Of a stretch of DNA of 64,000 bases, positions 15,320 through 64,000 are shown piece after piece (within the stretch, counting starts at the first letter, position 1; each line of letters opens with the position of its first letter). Location: NCBI GenBank assembly GCA_963734155.1, contig CAVTGG010000014.1, positions 309,841-373,840 of the forward strand, read 5' to 3'. Source of the stretch: an uncultured Acidobacteriota bacterium (lineage in GTDB: Bacteria > Acidobacteriota > Thermoanaerobaculia > Gp7-AA8). A program made the position numbers and the translations under genes. Below the pieces are notes generated by a model. That model saw nothing but the letters and a program-made list of their open reading frames with translations, did no database searches and was not told the DNA's origin.

Positions 15320-16522
15320 ATGGCGCTGGTCTCCGCGATTCGGATCGTTTTTCACACTCTACGCCATGCGCTCACGGATCGTGTCCATCGCGTGTGGCGC
15401 GGCGCGGCGCATCGCGAGCGGAAGTTGCGCATCGGCGTCGACATCCGCCCGTTTTACGAGCCGCTGACCGGCGTCGGCTGGTACCTCTACTTCGTCCTCC
15501 ACGAGCTCGCGAAATACAAGCACGTCGAGCTCTATCTCTTCGGCGATGCGCGCGTCACGGACCTCGGCCCGACGCTGCACGTCGACATCCCGTCGAACGC
15601 GAAGCTCTGCTCGTTCGATCTGCGCGGCATCCCGTGGCGCAACGCGATGCGGCCGATGACCGCGGCTGGTTACGTCGCCTGGCTCGCGCTCTCCGACTGC
15701 GACGTGTACTTCGGCGCGAACTATTTCCTGCCGCGGCTGCACGGCGCGATCGCGAAGCGGCGCGTGATCACCGTGCACGATCTGACGTACAAGCGCTTCC
15801 CGGAGCTGCTGCAGAAGGAGACGCTCGAGAATCTCGAGCGCGAGATGGCGCGCGAGGTGGCGATCGCGGACGCGATCATCTGCGTGTCGGAATCGACGCG
15901 GCGCGATCTGCTCGAGTTCTATCCGATCGCTCCCACGCGCGCCGTGGCGATTCACTCCGGCCTCGCCCCCGCGCCCGCACCCGAGCCGCTCGAAGGTCTC
16001 CCCTCCCGCTACATCCTCTTCGTCTCCACGATCGAGCCGCGCAAGGACCTCGGCACGCTGATCTCCGCGTACGAGCGCCTGAACGATCCGACCGTGTCGC
16101 TCGTCGTCGTCGGAAAAGTCGGCTGGAAATCGAAAGCGTTGCTTCCGCGGCTGCGCGGCCGCGGCATCGTGCACCTCGACTACCTGCCGCCGTCGCAGCT
16201 GGCGACGGTGTACGAGCGCGCCGCGGCATTCGTGTTTCCGTCGATCTACGAAGGATTCGGATTCCCGCTGCTCGAGGCCATGCGCCACGGCATCCCGTCG
16301 ATCGCCGCGCGCTCGTCCTCGCTGCCGGAGATCGGCGGCGACGCGGCTCTGTACTTTCCCGCCGGGCGATGTCGACGCGCTCGAATCGCAGCTGCGGCGC
16401 GTGCTCACCGATGATGCTCTGCGCATCGATTTGTCCACGCGTGGAAAAGCGCGCGCGGCGGAGTTCCGATGGGAGATCGCAGGCGCGAAGACGCTGGAGG
16501 TGTTACAAAGAGCGGCGGAATG
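15320..16522 (+). CDS. GT4-family glycosyltransferase (apparent +1 frameshift near 16361-16367)
   Basis: The GT-B C-terminal motif is FVFPSIYEGFGFPLLEAMRHGIPSIAA. The reading frame breaks after LYFPAG (ccgggcg) and resumes in another frame to a TGA at 16521-16523. Confidence 0.55.
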
Positions 16523-17533
16523 AGAGTCGTCATCGACGGCCGCCCGCTCGTCGGCAACCGCACCGGCATCGGCGTGCACACCGCCGAGATCACGAAGCGC
16601 CTCCCCTTCGAAACGATCATCGCTTCTCACAAAGCAATCGAAGATTGCGCCAGATCTTCATCGCTCATCCTTCATCGTTCATCCTTCATCCCTCGGCGTC
16701 CTCTGGCAGCAAACTCAACCTCCCGAAAATCGATGGCGATGTTCTCTGGGGTCCTCACGGCACTCTTCCTCTGACCTCGCGCCTTCCGTCTGTCGTCACG
16801 CTGCACGACTTCACCTCCATCACGATGCCGGGCCGGCATCGCCTGAAGACGATCCTCTCCTTCAACCTCTTCATCGGCGCGAGCCTGGAAAAAGCATCGC
16901 GCGTCGCCTGCGTCTCGCGCGCGGTCGCGGACGAGGCGATGCGCGGCTTCGGCGTGCCCGCATCGAAGATCGAGCTCGTGCCGAACGGAGTGGACTCGTT
17001 TTTTTCTCCCGACGGTGAGGAAGAAGACTACGTGCTCTACGCGGGCACGATCGAGCCGCGGAAGGGACTGAATGATTTGTTCGCGGCGTGGAGTGCGCTG
17101 CCGCAGCCGCGGCCGCGGCTCGTGCTGTGCGGCGACGCGGGCTGGGGCATGCGCATCCCGGACGGCGTCGAAGTGACGGGATACGTTTCGCGCGAGCGGT
17201 TGCGCGAGCTGTATCGCCACGCGCGCGCGTTCGTCTATCCGTCGCACTACGAAGGCTTCGGCATTCCTCCGCTCGAAGCGATGGCGTGCGGCGCGCCGGT
17301 GATCGCCACGCGCGTCGGTGCAATCCCCGAATACGCGGAAGGCGCCGCGGAACTGATCGCACCCGGCGACGTCGCGCGTGCTGCGCGCTGCACTCACGCG
17401 TGTGCTGGGCGATGCGACGCTGCGGCGCGAGCTTCGCGCGCGCGGTCCGCAGCGCGCACGCGCGTTCGGATGGGACGAAAGCGCGCGCACGATGGCCGAG
17501 CTGATTCGTGGAACACCGTGGAACATCGCGTGA
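16520..17533 (+). CDS. GT4-family glycosyltransferase (at least 2 frame disruptions, including a 13-bp tandem duplication)
   Basis: It begins MRVVIDGRPLVGNRTGIGVHT and has the motif FVYPSHYEGFGIPPLEAMACGAPVIAT. The frame changes near 16640-16700 (TTCATCCTTCATC x2) and again near 17385. Confidence 0.5.
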
Positions 17534-17559
17534 TCATTTCGATTTTCATAAACAAATGC

Positions 17560-17588
17560 TTGACAATATCGTTTAAGGATTCTATTTT
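17560..17588 (+). promoter_or_regulatory. near-consensus sigma70 promoter (TTGACA-N17-TATTTT) in AT-rich patch
   Basis: The -35 TTGACA is at 17560-17565, followed by a 17-nt spacer and the -10 TATTTT at 17583-17588. The local AT-rich composition is unusual for this genome. Confidence 0.5.
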
Positions 17589-17761
17589 TCGATCAGTAAA
17601 ACGATGATCGCCGAAAAGAAGACGAAATCTTCATTCACGCCGCAGGTCATCGATGTTCGTTTCCCCACCCAACCGTTAACGATTAGCCGGATTCAATCCG
17701 GCGCGTTATGCCAAGAGCGCGACCGGGAGGTCCCGTACGGCATGAAAGGTGGTGAGCACTG

Positions 17762-17830: not shown

Positions 17831-17864
17831 GCGATCATCACCGAACTTTTGGGGAGTCGTATGC

Positions 17865-17935: not shown

Positions 17936-18604
17936 ATGCGATACGCCCTTGCCTGCCTCACGGCGGCCGTGCTGTTTGCACCGGCCGCTCTCGCTGACGA
18001 TGATGTCGAGCATTCCTTTCAGACGTCGGTGCCCCGCGGGCAGGTCCAGCGCGTGGTGATCGACATTCCGTTCGGCGAGTTCACCGTGCGCAACGGCGCG
18101 GCGAACGCGATCACCGTCGCCGGCATCGCCTCACGCGACTACGACGGCCACCGCGAGCGCCTCTGGGCGCAGCAGGTGGTCAACGACACGAGCGTCGAGA
18201 TCGTGGTCCGCGGCGCCGAAGCGACCGTGCGAAGGAAGTTCGGCCCGAAGGCGCAGAGCTGGCGGGCGAAGAAGTTCACCGGAATCGACGTGAAGCTCGA
18301 GCTGCCGCCGGGACTCGACGTGAAGTTCGAGACCAGCGCCGGCGAGATCGACGTCGCCGGACACTTCGGCGATCTCGACATCGATCTCAGCGCGGGCGAA
18401 GTCGACGTGCGCGTGCCGCGCGCGACCGTGCGCGAGCTGAACGCCTCCTGCCGCATCGGCGAAGTGCGCACGAACCTCGGCCACGAGATCGTAGCGCGCG
18501 AAGGGATCTTTCCCGGCAAGACGCACTTTTACAACGCCGCCGGCCAGGGACACGTGAACGTGCACACGACGTTCGGCGAAGTGCGGGTCACGCTGACGCA
18601 GTAA
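17936..18604 (+). CDS. secreted DUF4097/DUF2807-like beta-helix (putative adhesin-fold) protein
   Basis: There is a signal peptide (MRYALACLTAAVLFAPAALA). GEIDV, GEVDVRV and GEVRVTL strand motifs repeat. The long ORF start at 17849 was rejected because it encodes the upstream terminator hairpin. Confidence 0.5.
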   Translation: MRYALACLTAAVLFAPAALADDDVEHSFQTSVPRGQVQRVVIDIPFGEFTVRNGAANAITVAGIASRDYDGHRERLWAQQVVNDTSVEIVVRGAEATVRRKFGPKAQSWRAKKFTGIDVKLELPPGLDVKFETSAGEIDVAGHFGDLDIDLSAGEVDVRVPRATVRELNASCRIGEVRTNLGHEIVAREGIFPGKTHFYNAAGQGHVNVHTTFGEVRVTLTQ

Positions 18605-18695
18605 CGCGGCAGCGTGCAACGAGCGCGCGGGTCCTCGGTCCGTTCGTCGTCACCTCGCCGCGCAATCCTGCGCCTCGAGCACGCGCGCGCTCTGG

Positions 18696-19647
18696 TCACC
18701 GCGGCCTGCGCTCGGCGCGCCGCCGGCGCGATGCGGCCGATGCGATCTCTTCGCCGGTGAGCAGCGGGCGGATCGAGAAGTCGGGGAAGTCGAGCGCGTC
18801 GTCGCGGCCGAGGGCGCGGAGGAGCGCGGGAAGCTGCCGTGCGATCGATTCGCCGGCGTCGTAGAGCGCGATGCGGTCGTGATGATCGATCAGCCGCCGC
18901 AGCGTCTGCACCTCTCGCAGCAGCGCGTGGCTCCAGCCCAACTGATCGCCGCCCGCGAGCGCGAGCGCAGCCGGCGAACGAGACGTCGTCCGCATGAAAC
19001 ACGCCCGCGCGGATGCCGAGGACTTCGTCGAGCGCGGTGCGGTGCAACAGATCGAGTGCCGTTCGAAACGCGTTCGACGAGAAGATCACCGACAGCTCGT
19101 ACATCACGCGCTCTTTCGCGACGCTGGCCAGCTTCGGCGCACGCTCGCGGATCGCCGCGATCGTCGCGTCATCGATCGACATGCCGTACTTCACGGCCAT
19201 GCGCACGCCTTTCAGCGTCCGCAGCGGATCGTCGTCGAAATTCTCGGCGTGGACCATCCGCACGACTCGGTCGCGAAGGTCCTGCTGTCCGCCATGCGGA
19301 TCGAGCAGCGCGCCGTTGGAGAGATCGACGGCCATCGCGTTGACGGTGAAATCGCGGCGCGCGAGGTCGTCGGCGATGTTGGCGTCGAGCAGCTCCGCGA
19401 AATCGTAGACGTGCTCGGGCAGCACGACGCGGTACGCGCTCAAATGCTCCTGATCGCCGAGGCGGATGACTTTCGGGGAAACCGTGCGCGCTGCGGCGAG
19501 GGGATCGAGACAGGCCACGTCGGCGTCGGCGGGCTCGCGTCCCATGAGCAGATCGCGAATCGCGCCGCCGACGACGTAGGAGCTCGGCGGGAGCGTCGCG
19601 AGCGCGGGGAAACGGCGAACGAGCTCGTCACGCCACATGGTCGGCAA
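18696..19647 (-). CDS. cca: tRNA nucleotidyltransferase (CCA-adding)/poly(A) polymerase family (apparent frameshift near 18990)
   Basis: The Pol-beta head motif is GGAIRDLLMG ... DADV ... RRDFTVNAM. The C-terminal region continues in another frame (ORF 18696-18995). Confidence 0.7.
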
Positions 19648-19793: not shown

Positions 19794-20473
<680 letters not shown>

Positions 20474-23398: not shown

Positions 23399-24811
23399 CT
23401 AGCGGGCCTCCGGCAGAAGGACTCTCACCCACTCAGAATACTGCTGTCCTGAGGGATGGAGTCCATCGCCGGCGACCAGCGAGGGGTCGTTGCGGCGGGA
23501 AATGGGCGTGATGTCGACCCATTTCGCGCCCGCGCGCCGCGCTTCTTCGCGATTGATGGCGTTGAATTGATCGATCTCGCGGGCGATCTTCGCGCGGTCG
23601 CGCCCTTCCGCGAACGGCGTGACGCCCCAGTCGGGAATCGAGACGACGATCACGTGCTGCGCGTTTCCGCCCGCGAATCCAATCGCGCGCTGCAGCAGTC
23701 CGACGAACTGCGTGCGGTACTCATCCGCGCTGCGCCCGCGGTATTGGTTGTTCACGCCGATCAGCAGCGTGACGAGGTCGTACGGTCCTTTCGGATCCGC
23801 GGCGTCGATGGCGGCGTTGAGCTCGTCCGTCGTCCAGCCGGTCCTGGCGATGATCTGCGGCTCGCCGAGGTTCAGCTGCTTCGCGAGCTGCACCGGAAAG
23901 CGATCCTCGGCGGCAACGCTCTCGCCGATCGTGTACGAATCGCCCAGCGCGAGATAGCGCGTGTCCTTCGAAGGCATCGCCGAGCATGATGTCAGAAGAA
24001 GCACGGCCAGGACCGCGCCGAGGGCGTAGCGGTAGTAGATGAAGATGTGCGTCGTGTGCGTGCGGAGGTAGCGCAGCAGGAACCAGATCGACGCCCAGCC
24101 GGAAACGAACGCGACGACGATCGAGACGAGGATCGGGGTCATGCCGATCGCCGCCAGCGCTTTGCGCTCCGAGACGAGCTCGTACAACCCGGCGGCGGTG
24201 ATCGCGGGGATGCTCATGATGAAGGAGAACCGCGCGGCCTGTTCGTGCGGGATGCGGCGGAAGAGCGCGGTCATGATCGTCGATCCGCTGCGCGACGATC
24301 CCGGAATGAGCGCGATGCACTGTCCGAATCCCATCCACCACGCGTCCTTCGCGTTGAACTCTTCCGGCGCGCGGAATCCGCGCGTGCGCGCGTAACGCTC
24401 CGCCATCTGCATGAGAAACGCGATGAACACGAGCTGAAACGTGACGACCCAGGTGCTGCGAAAGACGCCGTGGATGAGGTCTTTGAGCAGGATGCCGAGG
24501 ACGATGATCGGAATCGTCGCGAAGATGACGTACCAGGCCATGCGCGAGTCGTCGTCGCCGAACGGCTGGCGCGTGATGAGGCCGCGAAAGAACGCGACGG
24601 TCAGGCGCACGATGTCGCGCGCGAAGTAGAGGATGACGGCGACGATGGTCCCGAACTGGATGACCGCCGACGCCGCGGCGCCGGGATCGCCCCATCCGAG
24701 AAGCTCGGGGACGAGTTTGAGATGCCCGGTGGATGAGATCGGAATGAACTCGGTCAGACCCTGCACGAGTCCGAGAACGATCGCTTCGGTAATGGACACT
24801 ACATCTCCCAA
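23399..24811 (-). CDS. uppP: undecaprenyl-diphosphatase (UppP/BacA) fused in-frame to an SGNH/GDSL hydrolase domain
   Basis: The BacA motifs are LTEFIPISSTGHL and PGSSRSGSTI. With no intervening stop, an SGNH domain follows (ALGDSYTIG ... DGLHPS). The junction (LLLTSC) resembles a lipobox. Confidence 0.65.
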   Translation of the reverse strand: MGDVVSITEAIVLGLVQGLTEFIPISSTGHLKLVPELLGWGDPGAAASAVIQFGTIVAVILYFARDIVRLTVAFFRGLITRQPFGDDDSRMAWYVIFATIPIIVLGILLKDLIHGVFRSTWVVTFQLVFIAFLMQMAERYARTRGFRAPEEFNAKDAWWMGFGQCIALIPGSSRSGSTIMTALFRRIPHEQAARFSFIMSIPAITAAGLYELVSERKALAAIGMTPILVSIVVAFVSGWASIWFLLRYLRTHTTHIFIYYRYALGAVLAVLLLTSCSAMPSKDTRYLALGDSYTIGESVAAEDRFPVQLAKQLNLGEPQIIARTGWTTDELNAAIDAADPKGPYDLVTLLIGVNNQYRGRSADEYRTQFVGLLQRAIGFAGGNAQHVIVVSIPDWGVTPFAEGRDRAKIAREIDQFNAINREEARRAGAKWVDITPISRRNDPSLVAGDGLHPSGQQYSEWVRVLLPEAR

Positions 24812-26439
24812 ATGACAGGCAGAATCATCGGCCGCCTGCCCATGCTCTTTCGAAAGTATCGCTTCAGCAGCGCGCGGATTTTTTCCTGCAGCAGGTCGGA
24901 ATCGCGCAGTTCCTCGGCGGGACTTTCGTCAAACATGCCAACGATCATCTGCTGCACTTCGGCGAGGATCTCCTGGCTCGCGTCGACGTGCACCAGTCCG
25001 CGGGTGATGATCTCGGGATCGCGGATCAATCGCCCGTTGCTGTCGACGGCGACGACGGCAATCACGAATCCGTCCTCGGCGAGATGCTGGCGGTCGCGCA
25101 CGACGACTTCCGGCACTTCCTCGGCCTGCGCGTCGATGAACACTTTGCCCTGCGTCACGCGCTCCTCGAGCACGCGAATCGCATCGCCCTCGATCTCCGC
25201 CACCTGCCCGTTCGTGATCACCACGCCGTGCGGCACTCCCACATCCTTCGCCAGCCGCGCGTGATGAATGAGGTGGCGCAACGTGCCGTGCATCGGGATG
25301 AAGAACTTCGGCCGCGTGACGTTCAGCATCAGCTTCAGCTCTTCCTGGCAGGCGTGGCCGGAGACGTGGATGTCGGGCTGCTCGTGATGCACGACGTCTG
25401 CGCCGCGGCGATAGAGGTGATCGATCACGTGCGCGACCGCGCGCTCGTTACCGGGGATCGTGCGCGCGGAGATGATGACGACGTCGCCGCGCTCGATCGC
25501 GACCTGTTTGTGCTCGCCGATGGCCATGCGCGAAAGCGCCGACGACGGCTCGCCCTGCGTGCCGGTGGTGAGGATGACGAGCTCGCGCGGCGCGAGATCG
25601 GCGGAGCCGGCGCGGACTTCGCGCGGAACGCGCAGATACCCGAGGCGCTCCGCGGTCTCGACGTTATCGACGAGCGAGCGCCCGACGAACAGCATCTTGC
25701 GGCGGTGCTTGCGCGCGAGATCGATGATCTGCTGCACGCGATGAATGTGCGACGCGAAGGTCGTGACGATGACGCGCCCGGTCGCGTTCGCGAACAGACG
25801 ATCGAGCGCGGTGCCGACCGTGCGCTCGGACGGACCGTGGCCGGGCACGAGTGCGTTGGTGGAATCGCTGACGAGGAGCAGCACGCCCTCTTCGCCGTAG
25901 TGCGCGAACCGCGCGAGATCGGTCGGCTTGGCGTCGATCGGCGTGTGATCGATCTTGAAGTCGCCGGTGTGAATGATCGTTCCGGCGGGCGTCGTGATCG
26001 CGTATCCGAGCGCGTCGACGATCGAATGCGTGACGCGGATCGCTTCGACGCGGAACGCGCCGGCCTCGACGACGTCGCCGCGCGGCATCGATCGTTTACG
26101 TCATCGCGAGCAGTCTCGATGACGTCCGTCGATGCCGAACTCTTCGAACTTGTCGGCGACGAAGCCGAGCGTCAGCGGCATGCCGTACACCGGCAGCGGC
26201 AACCGCTCGACGAGAAACGGCACCGCGCCGACGTGGTCTTCGTGCCCGTGCGTGAGAAAGAGCGCCTTGATCTTCGACGCGTTGTCGAAGAGGTACGTCA
26301 TGTCGGGCACGATGACGTCGACGCCGAGCGTGGCCGCGTCGGGAAACATCATCCCGCAGTCGACGAGGATGGCTTCATCGCCAACCTCGTAGACCATGAG
26401 GTTCATGCCGATCTCGCCGAGTCCGCCGAATGGGATCAC
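24799..26439 (-). CDS. rnj: ribonuclease J (interrupted by an in-frame TGA at 26101-26103)
   Basis: The N-terminal MBL domain carries HGHEDH. The beta-CASP domain and C-terminus follow in the same frame after a TGA (…GIDGRHRDCSR*RKRSMPRGDVVEAG…). The start is a probable GTG at 26439. Confidence 0.75.
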
Positions 26440-26448
26440 GCGAAGAAC

Positions 26449-26527
26449 GGGTTGCTGGGTTGCTGAGTTGCTGAATTGCTGTGGTCTTCGTCGGTCATGT
26501 GTTCCTAGCGATCTAGCAATTCAGCAA

Positions 26528-26530: not shown

Positions 26531-27821
<1,291 letters not shown>

Positions 27822-27842: not shown

Positions 27843-28545
27843 TCAGGCCAACAGCTCGCGCAGCATGGCCTCGCGGCGATTCATGAAGTCGCGCATGACC
27901 GTGTAGTGCTCGGTTTCCTCGTAGGCGACTTCACGAATTTTCTCGTCGAGCTGATAAATCGTCGCGCCGGGATACGCCATGAGGATCGGCGAGTGCGTGG
28001 CGATGATGAACTGCGATCCCCATCCCGCGAGATCGTGAAGGCGCACGAGCATCGACAACTGCCGCATCGGCGACAGCGCCGCCTCCGGCTCGTCGAGGAT
28101 GTACAGCCCATCGCCGAGAAAGCGATTGAGCAAGCAGCGCCATGAACGACTCGCCATGCGACTGCGCATGCAGCGAAGCGCCGCCGTACCCGCGCGTCAC
28201 GCCAAGACGGTCGATCTCCGTGGCGACGTTGAAGAAGCTCTCCGCTCTCAGAAAGTACCCGTCACTCGGCCATTTTGCTGACCTCATTAGTTTCACGAGC
28301 CGTTCTTCTTCCGCCTCGCGCTTGACCGTCTCGAATTGAAAGTTCTTCGAGCCGCCCTCGGGATTGAACCCCGCCGCCAGTGCGATCGCCTCCACGAGCG
28401 TGGATTTGCCCGAACCGTTCTCGCCGATGAAGAACGTGATTGGGTTCGTGAACTCGAGGGTTTCCGTGCGGCGGATGGCGGGGATGCGGGCGCGATAGTC
28501 GGCGACGGGCTGGAGGAAGGCGGAGCGAACGAACACGGTGTTCAT
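27843..28545 (-). CDS. AAA/ABC-type ATPase (AAA_21-like; apparent frameshift near 28150)
   Basis: The Walker A is FFIGENGSGKST. The Walker B / D-loop YILDEPEAALSP ... IIATHSP is in a second frame. Confidence 0.6.
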
Positions 28546-28550: not shown

Positions 28551-28666
28551 GGCGGCGGGACGCCGCCGGGCCAGCCGGCGAGGACGCCGGCGTTCCGAGG
28601 ACAGCGCCGTTAGCGTCGGAGCGCCGGCGTCCTCGCCGGCTGGTCAGGCGGCGTCCCCGCCGCCTC
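28551..28666. repeat. REP doublet (43-bp imperfect inverted repeat built from GCCGGCGAGGACGCCGGC units)
   Basis: The left arm (28551-28592) is approximately the reverse complement of the right arm (28622-28666). It lies immediately 3' of the RAYT gene. Confidence 0.6.
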
Positions 28667-29231: not shown

Positions 29232-29297
29232 TTTGTCCGGTGAGCCGAGAGGTTGGACGGCAAACGGGACGTGTGGGAGGAGAGAAGAATAGCACGA

Positions 29298-29364
29298 GGC
29301 GGCGAGGACGCCGCCTGATCAGCCGGCGAGGACGCCGGCGCTCCGAAGCTCGTTGGCTTCGGAG
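29298..29364. repeat. REP palindromes (GGCGGCG-AGGA-CGCCGCC, GCCGGCG-AGGA-CGCCGGC) plus hairpin CTCCGAAGC-N6-GCTTCGGAG
   Basis: These are the same unit as 28571-28643. They overlap the last 15 codons of the dynamin-like gene, on the upstream side of the RAYT. Confidence 0.55.
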
Positions 29365-31009: not shown

Positions 31010-31948
31010 CTATCGCGGCACACGCACCAGCAGCGATTGCGGCACGATCGTAATCGAAAGCGGCGTCCGCATCGTGAAGACCTCGCCGTCGACGCCGACG
31101 TGGAGGTGCGGCCGCGACGATTGGACGCGCATGCGCTGCGTGCGGAACGAGCGGAAGCCCGGCACTGCGCGTACGCGCCCGGCGAGATAGCGCGCGACGA
31201 ATTTCATCAGCTGCCACCGCGGGATGTGCGACAGCCAGTAAACCGAGAGACGGCCTTCCTCGAGCGTGCTGCGCGGCGCCTGAATGCCGATGCGCGAGAG
31301 GTCGTAGGAGTTGTTGGAGACCATGAACACGTGAGTGCGAATCAGGTCCTGGCGGAAATCGGATTCCACGGTGAACGTCACGTGCGGATACTTGCGCAAC
31401 GTGACGTACGCGGCGTACAGCCGCGCCTTCCAACGCGGATAGTCGCGTCCCTTTTCCTCGCGGCGCGCCACGAGCTCGGGATAGAGACCCATCGAGACGT
31501 TGTTGACGAAGAACCGATCGTTCACGCGCGCGGTATCGATCTGGCGGCGCTCGCCGGTGAGCGCGACCTCGAGCGCGGCACGCCAGTCGAGCGGGATGCC
31601 GAGATCGCGGGCGAAATGGTTGTAGGTCCCGATCGGGAGCACGGCGAGCGCGGCTTCGGTGTGCACGACGGCCTGCATCACGTGGTGCACGGTCCCGTCG
31701 CCGCCGGCGGCGATGAAGAGCTTCGTGCCGCGGCGGAGGTGATCGCGACAGATGGCGGCGATGTCGACACCGGGCCCGAGCTGGACGACTTCGAGATTCG
31801 CCGCGCTCGCGGCGCTCAGCAAAGCGTCGACTTCGGCGGGAGGAAGTTTCGCGCCGGAGGTCATATTCAAGAAAACGATGCCTTTGGCTGGCAATTTCGT
31901 CCGTCCGACCGGCGTTTCCACCGCCGATTCTGCCCATGAGGTTCCCAT
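31010..31948 (-). CDS. diacylglycerol-kinase catalytic-domain lipid kinase (YegS/BmrU-like)
   Basis: The DAGK_cat pattern is KGIVFLNMTSGAK ... FIAAGGDGTVHHV ... LPIGTYNHFARDLG. The start codon overlaps the divergent neighbour's ATG (CATG). Confidence 0.65.
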   Translation of the reverse strand: MGTSWAESAVETPVGRTKLPAKGIVFLNMTSGAKLPPAEVDALLSAASAANLEVVQLGPGVDIAAICRDHLRRGTKLFIAAGGDGTVHHVMQAVVHTEAALAVLPIGTYNHFARDLGIPLDWRAALEVALTGERRQIDTARVNDRFFVNNVSMGLYPELVARREEKGRDYPRWKARLYAAYVTLRKYPHVTFTVESDFRQDLIRTHVFMVSNNSYDLSRIGIQAPRSTLEEGRLSVYWLSHIPRWQLMKFVARYLAGRVRAVPGFRSFRTQRMRVQSSRPHLHVGVDGEVFTMRTPLSITIVPQSLLVRVPR

Positions 31949-37507: not shown

Positions 37508-37994
37508 CGATGCGAACGCGAACGATCGTCGCAGTTGCCCTGCTCGCACTGGCCTGTCACTCACGGAGCGGCATTCGCGGCGACGCGGTCGGCTCGGCGT
37601 GGCTCGAGAGGGTGTATCTCACCTACCGCGTTCCCACGGTCTATTTACTCTTCGTCGCCGATGTCGGTCCGCCGGGTGCACCAGGTGGGTGGATGGGCAG
37701 CGGAAGCGTCGGAGGCTGGAACGCGGAGTTGGCCAAGCGTTACCGGGACGACGCATCTCTCACCGAGATCAACGCGCAGCCGATCACCATTCGATTCGCG
37801 ACGCTGCGCGCGGGGGGAACGTCGTTCGATCTGACAGATGGCAATGTTCTGGTCGCACACATGAGCTCAACCGGCGCGCTGACCATCACTCAATTGCCGG
37901 GGCGTGTCGGGCCGGACGAGCCGGTGCATGCCGTCGTGTCACTGATCAAACGCTCCCTTCCCTACGATGCGCGCGTGCAAGCGCTGCCGCTCCC

Positions 37995-46054: not shown

Positions 46055-46558
46055 GGTGGTTGCGGTTCGCCATTGGCCTCCTGATCGCGCTGACGCTGCA
46101 CTCGCTGCTCGACAGCTTCTATCCGAACGCGCTCGCGTTCTTCAATCCGTACATCATCCTCGTCGCCTACTACTCGATGGGCGGCAACATCGTCGGCGCG
46201 ATCTTCGCCGGCATCGCCGCCGGGCTTCGTGCAGGACGCGTTTTCGAACGCGATGTTCGGCCTGCATGCATTCTCGATGACGTTCTGCGCATACATCATC
46301 GCCTCGATCAACGCCCGTCTGATGCTCCGCGGCACGCTCGCGTTCGGCGCCTGCCTCGGCGGTGCGGTGATCGTGAACGAGTTCGTGATCTACATCCTCG
46401 TGAACATTCTCGTGAAGCAGCGCATCGAGATGTTCGAGCAGGCGTTGTTCGTGAAGACGATCTTCACGCTGCTGTTCGGAATGCTGGTGTATCAGCTGTT
46501 GACACTGTTCTTGCGCGAGGAGCCGATCGAGGCAACGAGACGGCCGGCCGGGTGGTGA
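46051..46558 (+). CDS. mreD: rod shape-determining protein MreD (apparent frameshift near 46225)
   Basis: The N-terminal TM helices are in the 46051 frame. The conserved segment ...QDAFSNAMFGLHAF... continues in the 46229 frame. Confidence 0.7.
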
Positions 46559-49600: not shown

Positions 49601-49946
49601 ACTTCTCGATCTCGCGGCGCTCTTTCTTCGTCGGACGTCCCGCGCCGCGATCGCGGAAGACCTGCGCCACGATGTCGGGCTTCGTGGGCGGCGGCGACTC
49701 GTCGAGGTACATCGTGCGCGCGGCTTCCTTGGAGACGTTCGATTCCGGCAGCTGCTGCACGATCACGCGCCGGAATCGATCGCCCTGGTAGAACTCGACG
49801 ACGTCGCCTTCGTTCAGCGCCGCGGACGGCTTCACGCGCGAGCCGTTCACTTTGACCAATCCGCCCTTGCACGCCTCCGTCGCATCCGCGCGGTGTTTGA
49901 AGAGGCAGACGAGCTTCAGCCACATGTCGATCCGATGCCGTTCCAC
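49590..49946 (-). CDS. S4-domain RNA-binding protein (Hsp15/HslR-like)
   Basis: The S4 fold is RIDMWLKLVCLFKHRADATEACKGGLVKVNG. The C-terminus is basic. Confidence 0.65.
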   Translation of the reverse strand: MERHRIDMWLKLVCLFKHRADATEACKGGLVKVNGSRVKPSAALNEGDVVEFYQGDRFRRVIVQQLPESNVSKEAARTMYLDESPPPTKPDIVAQVFRDRGAGRPTKKERREIEKFKR

Positions 49947-49956
49947 GTAACTATCG

Positions 49957-49980
49957 TATAATCAGCGCCTTCGCGGAGGA
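49957..49980 (+). promoter_or_regulatory. -10 box TATAAT and GGAGGA SD upstream of HU/IHF gene
   Basis: TATAAT is at 49957-49962. GGAGGA is at 49975-49980, 3 nt before the ATG. Confidence 0.4.
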
Positions 49981-49983
49981 CAC

Positions 49984-50253
49984 ATGATCAAGGCGGACAT
50001 CGTCAACAAGGTTGCGGAGACTTCCGAGATCTCGCGAGTCAAGGCCGCTCAGGCCGTCGACACGGTGATCGAAGGGCTGCGCAACGCGCTCGCGCGCGGC
50101 CAGCGCATCGAGCTCCGCGGCTTCGGCGTGTTTCAGGTCAAGCAGCGCAAAAAAGGAATCGGCCGCAACCCGAAGACCGGCGTCGAGGTCAAAATCCCGC
50201 CGGGAAACACCATCCGCTTCAAGCCGGGCAAAGAACTGCGCAACCTTCTCTGA
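49984..50253 (+). CDS. HU/IHF-family DNA-binding protein (IHF-like)
   Basis: The motifs are RGFGVFQVKQR and GRNPKTGVEVKIP. Confidence 0.85.
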   Translation: MIKADIVNKVAETSEISRVKAAQAVDTVIEGLRNALARGQRIELRGFGVFQVKQRKKGIGRNPKTGVEVKIPPGNTIRFKPGKELRNLL

Positions 50254-50440
50254 CAAAACAGTGAACACGAGAAACAGCGGGACGTGGCGCGCGTCTTAAG
50301 AAGTATGAACATGCCGCATCGCAGAACCCCAGTGATGCAAAGTCCCGCCTGAAATCCCGCCTTGCCGCCGGCGCAAAAAGGCTGCGCGCCGGCGGCCTCC
50401 CGCCTTTCCTGCAAGCCGCCAGCGGTATTCTGGTCCACGG

Positions 50441-53400
50441 ATGCCGAAGGTCTATATCTCATCGACGTTCAAGGATCTCCGCGAGCATCGTCAGGTCGCG
50501 ATCCATACGCTCGATCGATTGGGGTACTCGACGCGTGCGATGGAGAAGTACTTCGCCTCGGACGAACGGCCGCTCGATCTTTGCTTGGCCGATGTCGCGC
50601 AGTGCGACCTTTACGTCGGGATCTTCGCGTGGCGCTACGGGCACATCCCCTCGGAAGGCAATCCCGAAGGTCAGTCGATTACCGAATGCGAATTTCGTGA
50701 GGCAGTGCGTCTCCGGATTCCCTGCCTGATCTTTCTCAGCGACGAGAGTGATCGCTGGCTCGTGGACAGTGCGAACGATCGCGCACAGATCGCACGACTG
50801 CGTGAGGAGCTCGGCAAAACATGCGCATCCTTTGACACACCCGAGAAACTCGGGCTGGAGATCAGCGTTGCGGTCGCCAACTGGGAGCGCAACCCCGACT
50901 TTCGGCGCTACCTGCAGGCGTTGGCGACCGAGTTTGCCGACCTTCCGGAGCTGCCGGGACATACGAGAAACCTGGCGATCAGCGAAATCATGACGATCGC
51001 CGTCAACCTGAATACCACCGCAGCGCGTGAGCAACCCTCGATCGTTCCCCTGCCGCAGGCCGTCGCAGAACAACGCGCCCTGCTCGTCGTTGGCGAGGGA
51101 GGAATCGGCAAGTCGACAGCGCTGCGATTTCTGACATATCACCATGCACGCTCGCGCCTGGAGGCCGAAGCCAACGGCGCGGACCTGAAGACGACGCTGA
51201 TCCCCATCTACATCCAGCTGCGCGGCGAGCGAACGGATCTTCGAAAGCAGTTATGGACGGCGCTGCAGCGGCCCGATTTTCATTGCAGCCGCGAGCTCTT
51301 CGATCGATGGCTTGCTGAACAGCCGTTCCTCCTGCTCGTCGACCGGCTCGAGGACGTAAATGTGAGATCGATCCTCGAAGAGCTCGCCGAATTGCTGCAG
51401 CATGCAGCACATGCGCGGATCGTGGTGGCCAGTCGACCACATCCGGCACTCAAGGATTCACCCTGGTCTCACGCGGCGCTTCAACTTCCAAGCGATGCCC
51501 GGCTTGCGGCGTTCTTCAGGGCGCTGCTCGGAGCGCAACGTGGCGGCGAGCTGTTCGACATGCTCGCACATCACGGTCTCCTCGAGCCGTTTCGCCGGCC
51601 GCTGTTCGCGCGTCTCCTCGCGCTGAGCTCACTGGAGTTGCTGCAACAGGAGCGCCTCACGCCGGCTTCGGTATTCCAGGACGTCATCGAACGTCGATTT
51701 CTGACTGAGTGGGAACGACCCGATGATGCACACAACCAGCATGCGATCATGCAGGACTTTCTTGCGCGTCTTGCTCACCGCATGATCGCGGCGAACACCG
51801 ACAGCGTCTCAAGCGATGAGGCACTGCTCGACGCGCGCAGCACGATCACCGGGCGCGGTCTCCTCCCGGACGTGCGCACACTGCAGAACGTTATGGACTG
51901 GACGATGCGGCACGGGCTGCTGACACACGTCGACGGGCAGCTCCAGTTCTGGCATGCGACGTTCCGCGATTACTTTGCAGCACTCTGGCTCGAGCGGCAT
52001 GCGAACCTGTTCACCGTTTACCGCCGCAGCTGGAGCCCACGATGGCACGAATGCCTGGCCTACTACTTCGGTTTGCTCCAGGGCCGGCAACTGCAGCGAG
52101 CAGTGCGCGTTCTGCTGCTCGGCCTCCGCGTGAACATCGCGATCCTGCATTTCAAGCCGTCCCCGGACTCGTCAGGGCGGCTGCTGCTCGTATTGCGATG
52201 CCTGGTGCAAGCCGGCACCGGCGGCAGGCGATGGCACAATGACGTTCTGCGCCGGCTTCCCACGACATTCAGCTACTTCTACCTGAGCGGCGCACCGACC
52301 CCAATCACGTATTCCTATCGACGCGACGGTTATGACCCGCATCATTATCTTTGCGATCTGATCGGGCAATTACGGTCGCCGGAAGGCTTTGCGTACCTCG
52401 ACAGGGTGCAAGCGGATCTCGATGTTGTCGCACCGGGACTATTGCACAGCCCCGATCATCAGGTCATCGAACGCCTGGCCCAGGCACTCATCGACCAGCC
52501 TGACGATGAACGCCACCGGTCGGGCAACGAAGTGCTGAGTCATCTGCTTCTCCGGTCGCGTGATCCTCGTTGTTTTGCCGCGCTTCGTCGCGTCGCCTGT
52601 GACCTGGGTGCAACACCGAGAGCAAAACTTCTGGGCTTACTGGCGCACACCATGATCTGGTATCGCCACGATATCGATCTCCGACAGGTACTCGGCGATG
52701 AATGGGGCGAACTGCTCATCGGATTCACGTTGCATGATGACGACGCGAAGGTGCGGACTGCGGCGGTAACGTTCCTTCGAGAGCTCGGCCCCACTCCGGA
52801 ATATCCAAGCGAATCCCTGGCCCCACGGGCTCGTCAAGCGTTCCTGCATGCGTTGACGGACACGAATCCGACGATACGTGACACGCGCCCTTGCGGCATT
52901 TCGCATTCCGGAGCTCGAGCATCACCTGGAGATCCTCCAGCGATTCCTCGCCGAAGACGATCTCGACGTCGTGTTCCGTGCGCTCTATCACTTCCGTCAT
53001 TCTGCCGAGCCCCGTCGCTTTTGCGGGGCGACGCTGAAGGTTCTTCGCAGGTACTCGACCGATGCCACAAGGCCTTTAGCCGCAGTTTTTTACAAAGGCT
53101 TGTGCGGCGAGGAGCATGCTGCCGCCGATCTGCCGCGCCGATCAGTGGCCTTTCTCATGAGCAGCGTGTTCTGTGGAAAGTACAAAGGACTCACGCTGTA
53201 CGCCATCCTTGCGTTGGGCACTCTCGCGGGCGAGTGGGCAGTGCCGTTCCTGACGGCGGTGTTGAGGAGTGAGGCATGGGAGGACACACGCTCCGCCGCC
53301 CTCGGGATCCTGGTCAAGCTTCTCGGCGTCCAGGCAGGCGACCTGGTGGCTGAGATGCTCGCCGACCCGTCGGCGCTGATGCGCGGAAGCGCCGCGGCCG

Positions 53401-53612
53401 ACTGCTTCATCCGTGACTTCGGGAACGATTTCCCCCCGCGCGTTGGCGCGCTCCTGTTTCGGCTCGTGACGGATGAGCATGAATACGCCTCACGCTACGC
53501 GACCTATGCCCTGCAGAAATGGGGGTATCTCGCAAAGGACTGGTATCCACACGAGGGCAATCCGATCTATCTCGGCCCACCACCTCCGGACACGCCGGAG
53601 TTGCAGGGCTGA
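50441..53612 (+). CDS. STAND NTPase: DUF4062-like N-terminal domain, NACHT-like P-loop ATPase, C-terminal HEAT/PBS-lyase repeats (apparent frameshift near 52885)
   Basis: The N-terminus MPKVYISSTFKDLREHRQVAI...CDLYVGIFAWRYGH matches the DUF4062 pattern. The Walker A is VVGEGGIGKST and the Walker B is LLLVDRLED. At least five HEAT-like repeats follow (DDDAKVRTAAVTFLRELG etc.). Confidence 0.6.
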
Positions 53613-53633
53613 CGTTACAATCCGCGCCAGCAC

Positions 53634-55176
53634 ATGCAGCCAGCGCAGACGGTCCTCGTTCTCGATTTCGGATCGCAATTCACCCAACTGATCGCCCGGC
53701 GGATTCGCGACCATCGCGTCTACTCGGTCGTGCATCCGTGCGATCTCGCTCCCGACAAAATCCGCGAGCTCGCGCCGACGGCGATCATCCTCAGCGGCGG
53801 GCCGCAGTCGGTGTACGCCGAGAGTGCGCCGTACTGCTCGCGCGAAGTGTTCGAGCTCGGCGTGCCGATCCTCGGCATCTGCTACGGCATGCAGCTCACC
53901 GCGTACTTCCTCGGCGGCAACGTCGAGCCGGTGCTCGAGCGCGAATACGGGCGCGCGGAAATCGACGTCATCCGCGAGTCGCCGCTGTTCACCTCCACGC
54001 CGCCGCATCAGCGCGTATGGGCCAGTCACGGCGACAGCATCCTCGCGCCGCCGCCCGGCTTCGAGGTCACGGCGTCGTCCTCGAGCGCGCCGATCGCCGC
54101 GTTCGAAAACCGCGAGCGCGACTGCTACGGGATTCAGTTTCATCCCGAAGTCACGCACACCGAGGCCGGCGGGCAGATCCTGAAAAATTTTCTGTTCGAC
54201 ATCGCCAAATGCGAGCCGACGTGGGACCTCGGCGACTTTCGCAAGCGAAAAGTCGACGAGATCCGCAAGCAGGTCGGCGATCGCCATGTCATCGCCGCGG
54301 TCAGCGGCGGCGTCGACTCCTCCGTCGCTGCGCTGCTCGTCGGCGAAGCAATCGGCGATCAACTCACCGCGATCTTCGTCGACAACGGCGTGCTGCGAAA
54401 ACACGAAGCGATGCAGGTCGTCTCGCGCCTCTCCGAAGGCCTCGGCATGCACATCGTCGCCGTCGACGCACGCGAGCGCTTCTACGAGAAGCTCGCCGGC
54501 ATCGAAGAGCCGGAGACGAAGCGCAAGCGCATCGGCAACGAGTTCATCGCCATCTTCGAGGAAGAAGCGAAGCGGATTCCGAACGTCGAGTTCCTCGTGC
54601 AGGGCACGCTCTACCCCGACGTCATCGAGTCGGTCTCGATCAAAGGACCGTCCTCGGTGATCAAGACCCATCACAACGTCGGCGGGCTGCCGGAGAAGAT
54701 GGGGCTGAAGCTCATCGAGCCGGTGCGCGAGCTGTTCAAGGACGAAGTCCGCCAACTCGGCGATCGAGCTCGGACTCGAAGAGGAGTTCGTCTGGCGGCA
54801 TCCGTTCCCCGGGCCCGGCCTCGCCGTCCGTATCCTCGGCGAAGTCAACGCCGCGCGCGTAGAGATCCTGCAGAACGCGGACGAGATCGTGATCGACGAG
54901 ATCCGCAAAGCCGGCCTGTATCGCGAGATTTCGCAAGCCTTCGCTGTCCTTTTGCCGGTGCGGAGCGTCGGCGTCATGGGCGACGAGCGCACCTACGAGA
55001 ATGTGCTTGCAATCAGGGCAGTCACGACCACGGACTTCATGACCGCGGACTGGTACCGGATGCCGCACGACCTGCTCGATCGCATGGCGCGGCGGATCGT
55101 GAACGAGGTTCGCGGCGTCAATCGCGTCGTCTACGACGTCTCGTCGAAACCTCCCAGCACGATCGAATGGGAATGA
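53634..55176 (+). CDS. guaA: GMP synthase (glutamine-hydrolysing) (apparent frameshift near 54775)
   Basis: The GATase Cys is in GICYGMQ. The ATP-PPase motif is SGGVDSSV. The C-terminal dimerisation domain ...[20 protein letters not shown]... is in a second frame. Confidence 0.85.
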
Positions 55177-55340
55177 GTTTCCGAAATTGGAGTCAAAAAA
55201 ACGTGCACGCGGGACGTTCCGGACTTATAGTTACGCATCCGCGTCTAGTCAGATCATCTCGGACGGCGTAACCAATACGCCAAAACATCAGGAGTCACAT
55301 CCCCTGTGGATGTCCTCGTAGTCAAGGAGGAGGCAACGAT

Positions 55341-61648: not shown

Positions 61649-64000
61649 GCATCACCATCCAACAGCATGCGCACGCGCTCGCCGACCGCCCGCGGCGACA
61701 ACAGCGTCTCGACCGTCACGCGTCCGCGCGCGCCGTGCGCCGCGGCCTCGTCGCGATGTTCGAACACGCGGCGCATCAGCTCCGCCGCGTGATCGACGTC
61801 CGGCTCGGCCCACACACTGCCGCGATGAAACGGCCCTTCCTGAACGTTCGTCTCCACTTCCTTGATAAGAGACGAGATACGAGTTCTCCTCGTTCATGAA
61901 GTGCATGTTGCCCGAGTATCCGGTCGCGATGACCGGCTTCGAGTACGCCATGGCCTCGGCGCACGTGTAGCCGAATCCCTCGCCGCGATGCAGCGAGACG
62001 TAGCAGTCCGTGGCGGAGAAGAGGCCGTACAGATCGCGGCGGCTCAGGTCTTCCGCGCGGATCTCGATGTTGTGCGCACCGCGCACCTTTCTCCATCAGC
62101 CGCCGCAGCCGCGCGCGGCCGCCCATGTCGGCGAAGCTCGACGACTTGATGAGCAGGCGGACGCGATCGTCGTTGCCGAACGCGCGGCGGAACGCTTCGA
62201 TCGCGCCGTCAGGATTCTTCCGCTCCGTCGCGCTGCTCGCGTCGAAGATGAACAGGAACGTGAAGACGCCGGGATCGAGACGATGCGCTTCCTTCGTCGA
62301 CGGCGGCGGAAACGCAGCGAGGTCGACGACGCACGGAACGGAGTGCACCTTCCGCTGCAGCGTCTCCGTCAGCGAATCGGCGACGAAGTCCGACAGCGCC
62401 CACACCTGATCGAATTCCGCGAACGCATCCTTCCAGTAATGATTCCCCTCGCGCTGCTCCCACGCGAGATAGACGATGTTGCGATGCCGCTCCACGACTT
62501 CGTCCGGCACCGTACGCAGGAGCAGCTGCTGCAAATGCGTGACGCTGACGAAGATGTTCGTTCCCTTCGCGACGTCATATCGCTGGATGAAATCCTCGGG
62601 GCGAAGATCATCGTCCATGCGGCTCGTCGGCAGCGGGATGTCCGACGTCGCGCAGCCGATCGTGTGCAGCGCCTGCGTGAGACCGCGCGTCATCTGCCCG
62701 AGGCCCGTGTCGCTGCGATGAAATCCGAACACGTTCGCGCCGCGCGGAATCGGCCGCGGCGGCGGCTGAATCTTCCTCGGCGGCTTGCCGATCGCCGAGT
62801 AAACGTGGATGTCGATCCCGGTGCGCTTCGAGCGCGGCGCGGGATCGTCGACCGGCGGATAGCGCCGGCGATAGTCGTCGAGCGCAACGGCGAACGCGCG
62901 GTCGCGCCGCAGCACCGGCTCGAGAATCTCCTGCTGCCCGGCGCGCGAGCGCGACGACGGATGCCGCGTCGTGTGAATCGGCAGTTCCAGCGTGAGCGGC
63001 ACGCCGGCCCACGGCTTGACGTCCATCGTCCAGAGAAACATCTCGACGTCGTGCAGGTCGTACTCGGCGGCGTATTTGAAGATGTCGAGCAGCGCGCGGC
63101 CGAACTCCGCCTTCCCTTCGCCGACCATCGCCAACGGCCACGCTTCCATGAAATGCCACGTGCGCGAGAACAGCGAGAACACGCGCGCGAGCGGCCGTCC
63201 GTTCGCGCGCTCCGCGAACAGCTCGATGGCCTCGGCGGGAGAGGAAGTGCTCTTTCAAACGGTGATCGCGCAGCCACTGCGCGAACGCCGCTCCGTCATC
63301 GAACAGCACGTCGGGAAACGCGTCGCGCAGATCGGGGCGCGCGTCGTACAGCTCGCGAATCGCGCGGATCGGCGAGAGCACGAACTGCTCGGTCGCGCCG
63401 ATGAGAATCTGATCGGCCTCGTGCCGCGCGACTTCCTGCAGGCGCGCGACAAACTCGCGGCGGTCTTCGCGCAGCGGCGCCTTCAGTCCCTCGAATACGC
63501 GCGGCCATTTCTTGTGGACCGCCGAGAGCAGCATCGCGCCGTAGTGCGTCGGCACGGCCGGGCGATAGCGATCGATCAGCGCCTCGTAGCCGTGATCCTG
63601 TACGCCGCTGGCGAGCATCCATTCGAGCAGCGGGCGCGGATTCAAACTGACGTCGCCGAATTTGGCGCCGAGGTCCGGACGCAGTTCCTGAATGCGCTTG
63701 ACGAGAATCGGCACGAGCGACGACGTCGACGGCACGGGTTGCAGCAGCGCGCGGCAATAGAACGCTTCGCCTTCCGGCGTCCACGGACTCACGTCCGAGC
63801 GAAGGAACACCTCTTCGTCGCGAAAGATATGGCGCATGATCGCGCCGTCGATCGCGATGCCCGACGGAAACGCGCCGAAGCCGTACGCCGTGCCGAGCTC
63901 TCCGCGATTGTTCGCCTCCACGCGATTCACGTAGAAGTCGCGGATGCGTGCGAGCGCTGGAAAGTCGAAGAAGTTGTAGCGATTCTGATGATGGGAAAGG
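61645..64000 (-). CDS. large GT4-family glycosyltransferase with N-terminal extension (5' end beyond window; at least 3 apparent frameshifts near 61862, 62060 and 63235)
   Basis: The GT-B C-terminal motif is EGFGYTCAEAMAYSKPVIATGYSGNMHF. Consecutive ORFs in different frames join with continuous family-like sequence. Confidence 0.5.

Follow-up and report, generated by a model that had tools for sequence, protein, structure and literature searches.

The window analysed here, a 64,000 nt stretch of DNA from an uncultured bacterium of the class Thermoanaerobaculia (Acidobacteriota), contains about 55 genes, 13 of which (~24%) are broken by extra bases. Its coding sequence holds 16 confirmed sites and one probable site with a single surplus base, plus one burst of extra bases, and the density is approximately one extra base per 3–4 kb (about 3 per 10 kb). 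The affected genes are listed below together with intergenic candidates; where a site is exactly placed the surplus base is bracketed within its context, and L numbers refer to related loci.

5288–5645, minus strand: DUF3037 gene; +1 frameshift within 5412..5431 (~5420), from a two-frame Pfam match
About 15320–16520, plus strand: GT4 glycosyltransferase no. 1; +1 frameshift within 16350..16368 (~16355), near the C-terminus, from the Glycos_transf_1 match
16520–17530, plus strand: GT4 glycosyltransferase no. 2; three sites, an extra A at 16652 (DNA alignment, GCC[A]GAT), an extra T at 16715 (alignment to L001, AAAC[T]CAA) and an extra C at 17373 (alignment to L001, ACGT[C]GCG)
18591–19640, minus strand: cca, CCA-adding tRNA nucleotidyltransferase; extra C on the plus strand at 18968 (alignment GCG[C]AGC)
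24802–26470, minus strand: RNase J; burst of ~24 extra bases within 26079..26131, with an in-frame TGA at 26101–26103, from comparison with six relatives
26531–27821, minus strand: asnS; extra T on the plus strand at 27535 (alignment GGA[T]CGG)
27846–28545, minus strand: AAA/ABC-like ATPase gene; extra A at 28132 (alignment to L001, L002 and L003, AGC[A]AGC)
31930, no strand assigned, between the diacylglycerol-kinase and outer-membrane-protein genes: possible extra C (alignment to L003, ATT[C]TGC)
31947–34770, plus strand: gene for a 940-aa outer-membrane protein; extra G at 33135, GG becoming GGG (alignment AAA[G]GGC)
37995–39329, plus strand: rarA; extra C or A at 39274, 18 codons before the end (seven-way alignment of the window and six relatives, GAGA[C]GGG)
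46051–46558, plus strand: mreD; extra G at 46222, GG becoming GGG (alignment to L004, GCC[G]GGC)
50441–53609, plus strand: DUF4062-NTPase-HEAT (STAND) gene; +1 frameshift within 52871..52881, junction ~52880, from HEAT continuity
53634–55176, plus strand: guaA; extra G at 54762 (alignment to L005 and L004, GGC[G]ATC)
55249 and 55322, no strand assigned, intergenic after guaA: two possible extra T's, both TAG[T]CA (alignment to L005, 90% identity)
61651 to beyond 64000, minus strand: large GT4-domain protein; +1 frameshifts at 61862..61863 (confirmed, orthologue mapping), within 62068..62097 (~62085; confirmed, L083 orthologue and profile match) and within 63240..63256 (~63245; probable, from the protein-likeness of the frames, without homologue confirmation)

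Profile-HMM coordinates and intact orthologues in related Thermoanaerobaculia contigs establish that the frame breaks are truly in the sequence. The HMM coordinates abut across frames in asnS, guaA, mreD, the DUF3037 gene, the GT4 genes and the AAA ATPase, and intact orthologues with 80–97% protein identity fall in two successive frames of the window. Exact matching of the proteins of three intact genes gave no hit, and the closest relatives, found among species-representative genomes and JGI metagenomes, share 96% protein identity in PBP2 and 90–91% DNA identity; in alignments to relatives at 87–91% DNA identity the window has one surplus base per site, and the remaining uncompensated intragenic indels are all multiples of three. 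By the same profile and orthologue mapping, every break named in a preliminary description of this DNA exists, 0–25 nt from where it had been placed, although the range given there, 15320–64000, is too short, as the affected stretch begins earlier with the DUF3037 break near 5420. That break and the RNase J lesion at 26079–26131 are additions to the earlier list.

The two pieces of asnS match positions 3–95 and 101–450 of the 451-position model NF003037, and in five relatives AsnS residues 1–95 map to frame -3 and residues 96–430 to frame -1; removal of one base yields a 430-aa protein that aligns over 100% of its length with homologues of 430 aa, at 97% identity. The guaA pieces match positions 1–376 and 375–512 of 512 in NF000848, and in 41 related loci the gene is intact and aligns first with frame 3 and then, at 54761–54763, with frame 1; once a single base is removed, GuaA is 513 aa, a length like that of its homologues. 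More than 20 relatives with an intact mreD map to frames 1 and then 2 at 46223, and the corrected MreD matches its profile at 9–156/158. The cca orthologues (L001, L144 and L145) lie in frame -2 to residue ~232 and in frame -3 from residue ~225, the P-loop and C-terminal halves of the AAA ATPase occupy different frames, and the outer-membrane protein orthologues (L003 and L144) have residues 1–397/405 in frame 3 and the remainder in frame 1. The DUF3037 pieces match positions 1–78 and 72–118 of the 118-position Pfam model, and removing one base gives a single match at 1–118/118 with 151.6 bits. The HEAT repeats of the STAND gene carry on in the +1 frame, as judged by profile matches and not by an orthologue, and after removal of one base a HEAT_2 match bridges the junction NPTIR|TRALAAF.

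In rarA the final ~18 residues, REIRERLERMRKARGKKG and stop, sit in the +1 frame, which is also where the true C-terminus EIRERLERMRKARGKKG and its stop are found; the alignments of relatives end at 39272–39275, leaving 16–21 residues over. This break had been assigned to a G5 run at ~39265, but the run (39262–39266) reads in frame as V-G-A, just as in relatives, and the extra base lies at ~39274. Upstream, positions 37504–37995 are placed in another frame by the codon model; an N-terminal extension of rarA in the same frame, as seen in L038, L017 and L058, is the likelier reading, and they were not counted.

Three GT4 proteins are affected. The Glycos_transf_1 match of GT4 no. 1 ends at 133/172 in the first frame and reaches 171/172 in the sequence corrected by one base, with the junction sequence ...DAALYFP|PGDVDAL. 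The L001 orthologue of GT4 no. 2 maps successively to frames 2, 0, 1 and 2: GVLWQQT and KLNLPKIDGDVLW are in separate frames around 16715, the last 55 residues move to the next frame after 17373, and the corrected protein has one unbroken Glycos_transf_1 match at 12–171/172. In the large GT4-domain protein the L083, L084 and L085 orthologues shift from frame -1 to frame -2 at 61862/61863; L083 residues 1–234 are in frame -3 and residues 244–312 in frame -1, and after correction the Glycos_transf_1 and GT4-conflict matches span the 62068..62097 site. At the probable site near 63245, the protein-like sequence that ends in ...LRDHRLKEHFLS is continued by PAEAIELFAER... in the +1 frame, while the old frame runs on stop-free for ~200 arginine-rich residues.

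The 17 scorable coding events are uniform in sign: each is a +1 shift with one surplus base, an outcome with a probability of 2^-17 (~8e-6) if +1 and -1 were equally likely; the RNase J lesion likewise consists of extra bases, so that the term indels, used at first for these breaks, is too broad. We inspected every same-strand frame transition on a codon-usage Viterbi path; neither this inspection nor the alignment to relatives revealed an uncompensated deletion within a gene of the window. The -1 transitions on that path are all ordinary gene boundaries, none of them a deletion, and wherever the window is one base short of a close relative, the position is intergenic or belongs to a compensated alignment pair. 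An ORF-based screen gave further apparent frame changes at 49946–49984, 31930–32000 and 45512/45898, which we set aside as artefacts of stop-to-stop query ORFs or as errors of L057 itself.

One possible cause of such breaks is the miscounting of runs of identical bases by a long-read or flow-based instrument, and long-read homopolymer errors had been offered as an example mechanism, with some of the breaks said to sit at G/C homopolymers. Homopolymer indels are indeed a commonly described long-read error; the insertions at 33135 and 46222 both turn GG into GGG, and the brackets 16350–16368, 63240–63256 and 5412–5431 hold 3-base runs. Among the 13 exactly placed insertions, however, the inserted bases are mixed (A2, T4, C4, G3), ten copy neither neighbouring base, and only those two create a run of at least three, a frequency (2/13) at the level of the 13–14% expected by chance in simulation. 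No insertion lies at a run of at least 4 even though 219 runs of 4 and 62 of at least 5 are present across the window; a T7 inside GT4 no. 2 and a C6 and the G5 inside rarA are all read in frame, and there are zero deletions. The observation of breaks at short G runs thus stands for two sites, at a chance-level rate, and the mechanism drawn from it is largely refuted by the insertion contexts and the simulation; we regard it as very unlikely.

Other features of the insertions are similarly unstructured. Their spacing is Poisson-like and compatible with a uniform distribution (gap CV 1.0, P = 0.33), there are two gaps of less than 100 nt (P = 0.08), and no common motif is present among the 13 contexts. 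Two of the 13 insertions create a GATC (post-hoc P = 0.017) and four lie no more than 3 nt from one (P = 0.05), but because GATC is very frequent (738 copies in the window) and no such association is seen at the L057 insertion sites, we retain this possible methylation-motif effect only as a weak lead.

A second question is whether these genes could be real pseudogenes, the mutations having occurred in a decaying lineage or in a defective subpopulation. The given sequence does contain the breaks, and some of the genes may be dispensable in certain bacteria, such as asnS where there is a tRNA-dependent transamidation route, RNase J and rarA. Against this, 13 genes are affected, guaA, mreD, cca and asnS among them, and in 12 of the 13 the only lesions are single extra bases, with no truncation, deletion or nonsense codon. 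Only RNase J departs from this, through an in-frame TGA that sits inside the burst of extra bases. With one base taken out per site, AsnS and GuaA regain the full length of their homologues, and a one-base correction gives a continuous Pfam match in six further genes (DUF3037, MreD, the three GT4 proteins and the STAND tail). The parts downstream of the breaks retain the ancestral stop codon, and downstream dN/dS is 0.04–0.09 in asnS and 0.01–0.08 in guaA, in both cases below the upstream values. With downstream dN/dS at 0.01–0.09, the broken genes are therefore not decaying pseudogenes. In GC content and coding density the window is like an ordinary free-living genome, and to our knowledge no mutational spectrum gives the uniform +1 sign. 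The breaks are moreover common to no relative, being present in none of 41 loci for guaA, none of more than 20 for mreD, and none of 5–6 for asnS, RNase J and cca; all of the relatives examined encode these proteins in a single frame. Genuine mutation is accordingly highly improbable.

We treat the RNase J lesion as one burst outside the 17 single-base sites. In all six relatives the loop has a fixed length with the pattern GI[DE]xIELRA[IV][ML]PRDVVE, whereas the window reads GIDGRHRDCSR*RKRSMPRGDVV (the asterisk being the stop), with gaps of +3, +13, +1 and +4 nt relative to the relatives and ~7 extra codons in total. Among the intergenic candidates, the extra C at 31930 could equally be a natural difference, and the extra T's at 55249 and 55322 could be natural differences too.

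Extra bases might also be left behind where an assembler or polisher stitches together differing alleles of mixed strains. Two of the lesions are in segments that vary between relatives, the GT4 no. 2 insertions at 16652 and 16715 lie on either side of a short tandem repeat in which the window and L001 differ, and the events in L057 cluster within 1.9 kb; yet most sites (those in asnS, guaA, mreD, the outer-membrane protein gene, cca and rarA) are in unambiguous, highly conserved sequence with no variation nearby, the RNase J loop does not vary in length among the six relatives, and the spacing overall is unclustered. Such a mixed-strain consensus, one variant of the artefact explanation and no true alternative to it, seems quite unlikely.

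The same uniform sign is what recoding would require, if the genes were expressed by programmed +1 ribosomal frameshifting or by transcriptional slippage. But the sites share no motif, and the shift is marked by neither a slippery run nor a stop or rare codon; no site is conserved, relatives being all single-frame, and beyond the sites the old frame remains free of stops over tens to hundreds of codons, such that we find this reading scarcely credible. It is likewise extremely unlikely that the extra bases are truly in the DNA of the natural population, whether through a recent burst of untemplated single-base insertions by a novel insertion-only mutator, or tolerated through an unrecognised, motif-independent +1 correction at the level of RNA or the ribosome.

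To gauge how often such breaks occur we surveyed ~221,000 aa of nine conserved genes from 79 related loci. Clear frameshifts are present in L057 and L078 only, together with one doubtful case, and apart from that case the short-read assemblies in the sample have zero. L057 (MFD01916.bin.2.105) has four +1 events and one +2 event, each an insertion and most of them away from runs; L078 has one +1 insertion. Both are Microflora Danica MAGs, which were built from Nanopore reads only, using Flye and one round of Medaka (PMC12313526).

We therefore consider it very probable, from the sequence comparisons, that the breaks of the window are technical insertion errors in the consensus, most likely from a Nanopore-only long-read assembly. 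This Thermoanaerobaculia genome stretch would have a consensus bearing spurious extra bases, each of which, when in a gene, would cause a +1 shift and split an otherwise intact conserved gene. The error positions are random, the inserted base is unrelated to its neighbours and deletions are absent, with several extra bases piled up at RNase J. The extra bases presumably arose during sequencing or consensus building, and a Flye/Medaka-type metagenome assembly of Nanopore reads alone, at modest coverage, would be the likeliest source because clear insertion-only damage occurs only in public MAGs made in this way; by analogy this attribution is the most likely one, through likeness to two loci only, L057 and L078. 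The preliminary view, which took the breaks for errors of sequence or assembly in preference to simultaneous pseudogenisation, has good though indirect support in the restored lengths, the strong purifying selection, the absence of the breaks from relatives and the Nanopore-only analogues. Counting against it, the insertion-only, homopolymer-independent profile departs from textbook long-read errors. Other stochastic sources, including PacBio CLR-type noise, faulty polishing and post-assembly corruption, would give the same mixed-base, Poisson, insertion-only pattern.

As to the consequences, asnS, guaA, mreD, cca, rarA, RNase J and the other broken genes should be treated as intact, the breaks having no biological import. 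Because the breaks fit consensus errors and not biology, gene calls need frameshift-aware handling; without such a caller the gene calls, pseudogene counts, completeness estimates and 'novel small ORFs' in the window are unreliable, and the whole source genome is probably affected likewise. Since the error mode is insertion-only and homopolymer-independent, correction tools weighted towards homopolymers would miss most of the errors. The same insertion-only signature is present in two public Nanopore-only MAG loci of the class Thermoanaerobaculia, and the extra-base pattern should be useful as a flag of sequence quality.

Among pseudogenes of reductive evolution, such as those of recent obligate symbionts and Mycobacterium leprae, frameshifts affect many genes, with housekeeping genes among them, as they do here. 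In decaying genomes the lesions are of several kinds (deletions, stops and insertions of both signs), the dead genes evolve under relaxed selection, and coding density is often reduced and base composition drifted, whereas the window has a single type of lesion, a downstream dN/dS of 0.01–0.09, and normal density and GC; neither relaxed downstream selection (in asnS and guaA) nor mixed lesions were found. In programmed +1 frameshifting, as in bacterial prfB and the widespread +1 sites of Euplotes, a +1 shift is similarly needed for the full protein. Such programmed sites are marked by a defined shifty motif, often with a zero-frame stop codon, and are conserved among relatives, but the sites of the window lack both shifty motif and conservation, with no shift-prone motif in the 13 contexts and no conservation among orthologues.

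Gene fragmentation through consensus indels is a known trait of long-read assemblies (PMC9262707; PMC12007338), and in Nanopore assemblies and MAGs assessed by the IDEEL test (PMC9262707; PMC12007338) single-base frame errors split conserved genes, with similarity resuming in the next frame, as in the window. Long-read consensus errors are described as mostly homopolymer-associated, with deletions more numerous than insertions (PMC12007338; PMC9262707). The window differs from these textbook Nanopore errors, which are homopolymer-linked and deletion-rich, in that it has no concentration at homopolymers and no deletions, usually the commoner class; continuity in the next frame, restoration by one base and absence of the breaks from relatives are all found. 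L057 and L078 resemble it, with insertions only and mostly outside long runs, and the error rate in L057 is of similar order, at 5 per 10 kb of tested genes compared with ~3 per 10 kb in the window.

The proteins of the 64-kb window (G+C 62–68%) are closest to those of Thermoanaerobaculia (Acidobacteriota) metagenome-assembled genomes, and the window is syntenic with contigs L001, L002, L003 and L005 at 87–91% DNA identity, with L004 at 85%, and with L143–L145. Of the approximately 55 protein-coding genes, 13 are interrupted. Features of this region include:

5288–6471, minus strand: a HipA-like kinase gene (HipA_2) followed by a DUF3037 gene, matching in PADLOC both components (A and B) of the candidate defence system PDC-M66
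6889–7159: tRNA-Thr (CGT) and tRNA-Arg (TCG), back to back, with normal scores
28668–29318, minus strand: an intact IS200-like Y1 transposase gene of the REP-associated type (Pfam Y1_Tnp)
50420–53615: a segment of about 3.2 kb carrying a DUF4062-NTPase-HEAT (STAND) gene; L005, the closest relative, is without the segment, its alignment skipping from 50419 to 53616

Candidate breaks were listed from a codon-usage Viterbi path through the window, as same-strand changes of frame without a stop/start boundary, and each was subjected to two independent tests, namely profile HMM searches with both pieces and the placement of intact orthologues on the window by tblastn. In the profile searches the two asnS pieces match positions 3–95 and 101–450 of 451 in NF003037, the guaA pieces positions 1–376 and 375–512 of 512 in NF000848, and the DUF3037 pieces positions 1–78 and 72–118 of 118; the second mreD piece covers only positions 58–149 of 154, the AAA ATPase has its P-loop on one piece and its C-terminal motif on the other, the Glycos_transf_1 match of the first small GT4 gene (about 15320–16520) ends at position 133 of 172, and additional HEAT repeats of the STAND gene are found in the next frame. 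Orthologues placed on the window switch frame once in asnS, the AAA ATPase gene, cca and the outer-membrane protein gene, and at one point in mreD and in guaA (41 loci for guaA); those of rarA and the large GT4 protein (61651 to beyond 64000) likewise switch frame, and that of the second small GT4 gene (16520–17530) does so at three points. On this evidence, all of the breaks listed in the preliminary description are real. Their positions had been given to within about 25 nt, except that rarA is not broken at the run of five Gs to which its break had been assigned: that run (39262–39266) is in frame and encodes E-V-G-A-E, as compared with D-A-G-A-E in relatives, and the surplus base is found some 10 nt beyond the run, at GAGA[C]GGG. 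Two lesions had been overlooked, one in RNase J and one in the DUF3037 gene at about 5420, which precedes the start of the range (15320–64000) to which the damage had been confined.

Deletion of one base per site restores exact homologue lengths, with 430 aa for AsnS, which is then 97% identical across all 430 residues to Thermoanaerobaculia bacterium asparagine–tRNA ligases ('MAG TPA'), and 513 aa for GuaA. The repaired DUF3037 protein gives one continuous domain match (1–118 of 118) and MreD a continuous match to 9–156 of 158; Glycos_transf_1 reaches position 171 of 172 in both small GT4 proteins, a GT4-conflict match bridges two sites in the large one, and a HEAT_2 match bridges the junction in the STAND protein. 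In comparisons with relatives, dN/dS values 3′ of the break are 0.04–0.09 in asnS and 0.01–0.08 in guaA, both below the upstream values, and the broken genes retain their ancestral stop codons; purifying selection has therefore acted on the broken parts effectively until the present, and the lesions have no evolutionary age.

In all 17 of the scorable coding events (16 confirmed and one probable, at about 63245 in the large GT4 gene) the frame shift is +1, and there is not a single –1 shift among them; the probability of this under equal odds is 2^-17. The earlier term 'indels' is thus too broad, as only insertions are seen. DNA alignments with the closest relatives show exactly one surplus base in the window at each resolvable site; the remaining uncompensated in-gene indels are multiples of three (3, 6 or 9 nt), and no uncompensated one-base deletions are seen in genes, such deletions occurring only in intergenic regions or as compensated alignment pairs. 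Four observations contradict real pseudogenisation: there is one type of lesion, the shifts all have one sign, purifying selection is strong, and no relative carries the breaks. The main point of the preliminary description, that the breaks reflect artefact rather than decay, is upheld. Programmed +1 recoding is excluded, as there is neither a motif nor conservation. Taken together, this converging though indirect evidence makes it very probable that the extra bases are a technical artefact; the frame breaks are not a biological feature of the window.

The homopolymer mechanism suggested earlier does not survive examination of the insertion contexts. Thirteen insertions can be placed exactly, including three that are intergenic and may be natural differences. 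A was inserted in two, T in four, C in four and G in three; the inserted base differs from both neighbours in ten, makes AA in one and makes GGG in two. A run of three or more is thus created in 2/13, against 13–14% of simulated random insertions, and although the window has 219 runs of four and 62 of at least five bases, no insertions fall at any of them. Miscounting of homopolymers is therefore rejected as the source. The spacing of events fits a uniform process (CV of gaps 1.0, P = 0.33), and no common motif is visible among the insertion sites. Two insertions (27535 and 54762) create a GATC, and another two (16652 and 55249) are no more than 3 nt away from one; with 738 copies this tetranucleotide is unusually common in the window, and a link is possible, although the enrichment is post hoc and marginal. 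At 55249 and 55322, in one intergenic region, there are single-base differences from L005, both of the form TAG[T]CA, for which chance, natural variation and the error process behind the other insertions are all possible explanations.

The extra bases would then be stochastic insertion errors remaining in the consensus, and the RNase J lesion may be one local pile-up of them: the loop GI[DE]xIELRA[IV][ML]PRDVVE is invariant in length in six relatives, and in the window, at 26079–26131, it holds about 24 extra bases, including an in-frame TGA. A consensus of mixed strains could contribute at the variable repeat segment of the second small GT4 gene; the majority of sites, however, are in sequence that does not vary, this fixed-length loop among them. 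The GT4 segment (16655–16700) consists of short tandem units such as TTCATCC and TTCATCG, and the L001 orthologue has a different 7-nt repeat there (CGTTCTG, three copies), a difference that marks it as a putative hypervariable linker. Two extra bases flank this repeat.

Some neighbouring features vary among the relatives. Copies of the GC-rich motif GGCCAGCCGGCGAGGACGCCG flank the Y1 transposase gene (about 28570–28590, 29295–29315 and 29320–29340), which is missing from the same position in L003 and present in L144. The STAND segment looks like an inserted island adjoining guaA, and its gene has no match in PADLOC. The rarA frame is open for about 170 codons further upstream (37473–37995), and three related loci (L038, L017 and L058) show similarity to this stretch, an indication that some lineages carry an N-terminal extension; in L004 the neighbouring genes are only about 80 nt apart. 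The DUF3037 member of the PDC-M66-like pair bears one extra base, and the normal scores of the two tRNA genes indicate that there is none within either.

To obtain a base rate, nine conserved window genes (repaired where needed) were compared with 79 related loci, over about 221,000 aligned residues, and only three loci have frame changes. Five lie in L057, affecting PBP2 and mreC (8871, 9253, 10182, 10381 and 10710), all within 1.9 kb and also recovered in a second screen with orthologues of other loci; DNA alignments show each of the five to be an insertion, of one base in four cases and of two bases in the other, mostly outside runs. L078 has one insertion frameshift in mreB (about 8362–8396), and L066 one doubtful change at about 34% identity. 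L057 (MFD01916.bin.2.105) and L078 (MFD10043.bin.2.76) are Nanopore-only MAGs from the long-read Microflora Danica project, whose assemblies were made with Flye and one round of Medaka (PMC12313526), and among assemblies whose MEGAHIT or SPAdes contig names mark them as short-read, no clear frameshifts were found in the nine genes. The likeliest source of the extra bases would thus be a long-read metagenome assembly, of the Nanopore-only type, at modest coverage. This attribution is weaker than that of artefact; it draws on two analogous loci and is close to an even call, as the same picture would be expected if the errors had another stochastic origin, for example PacBio CLR-like noise, faulty polishing or post-assembly corruption.

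What these observations offer is a warning about the quality of this genome, together with an example of an error mode that is insertion-only and independent of homopolymers and would escape homopolymer-weighted correctors. Consensus indels are known to fragment gene calls in long-read assemblies under about 40-fold coverage (PMC9262707). However, long-read errors are usually described as homopolymer-associated with deletions in excess (PMC12007338), whereas those in the window are exclusively insertions and independent of homopolymers.
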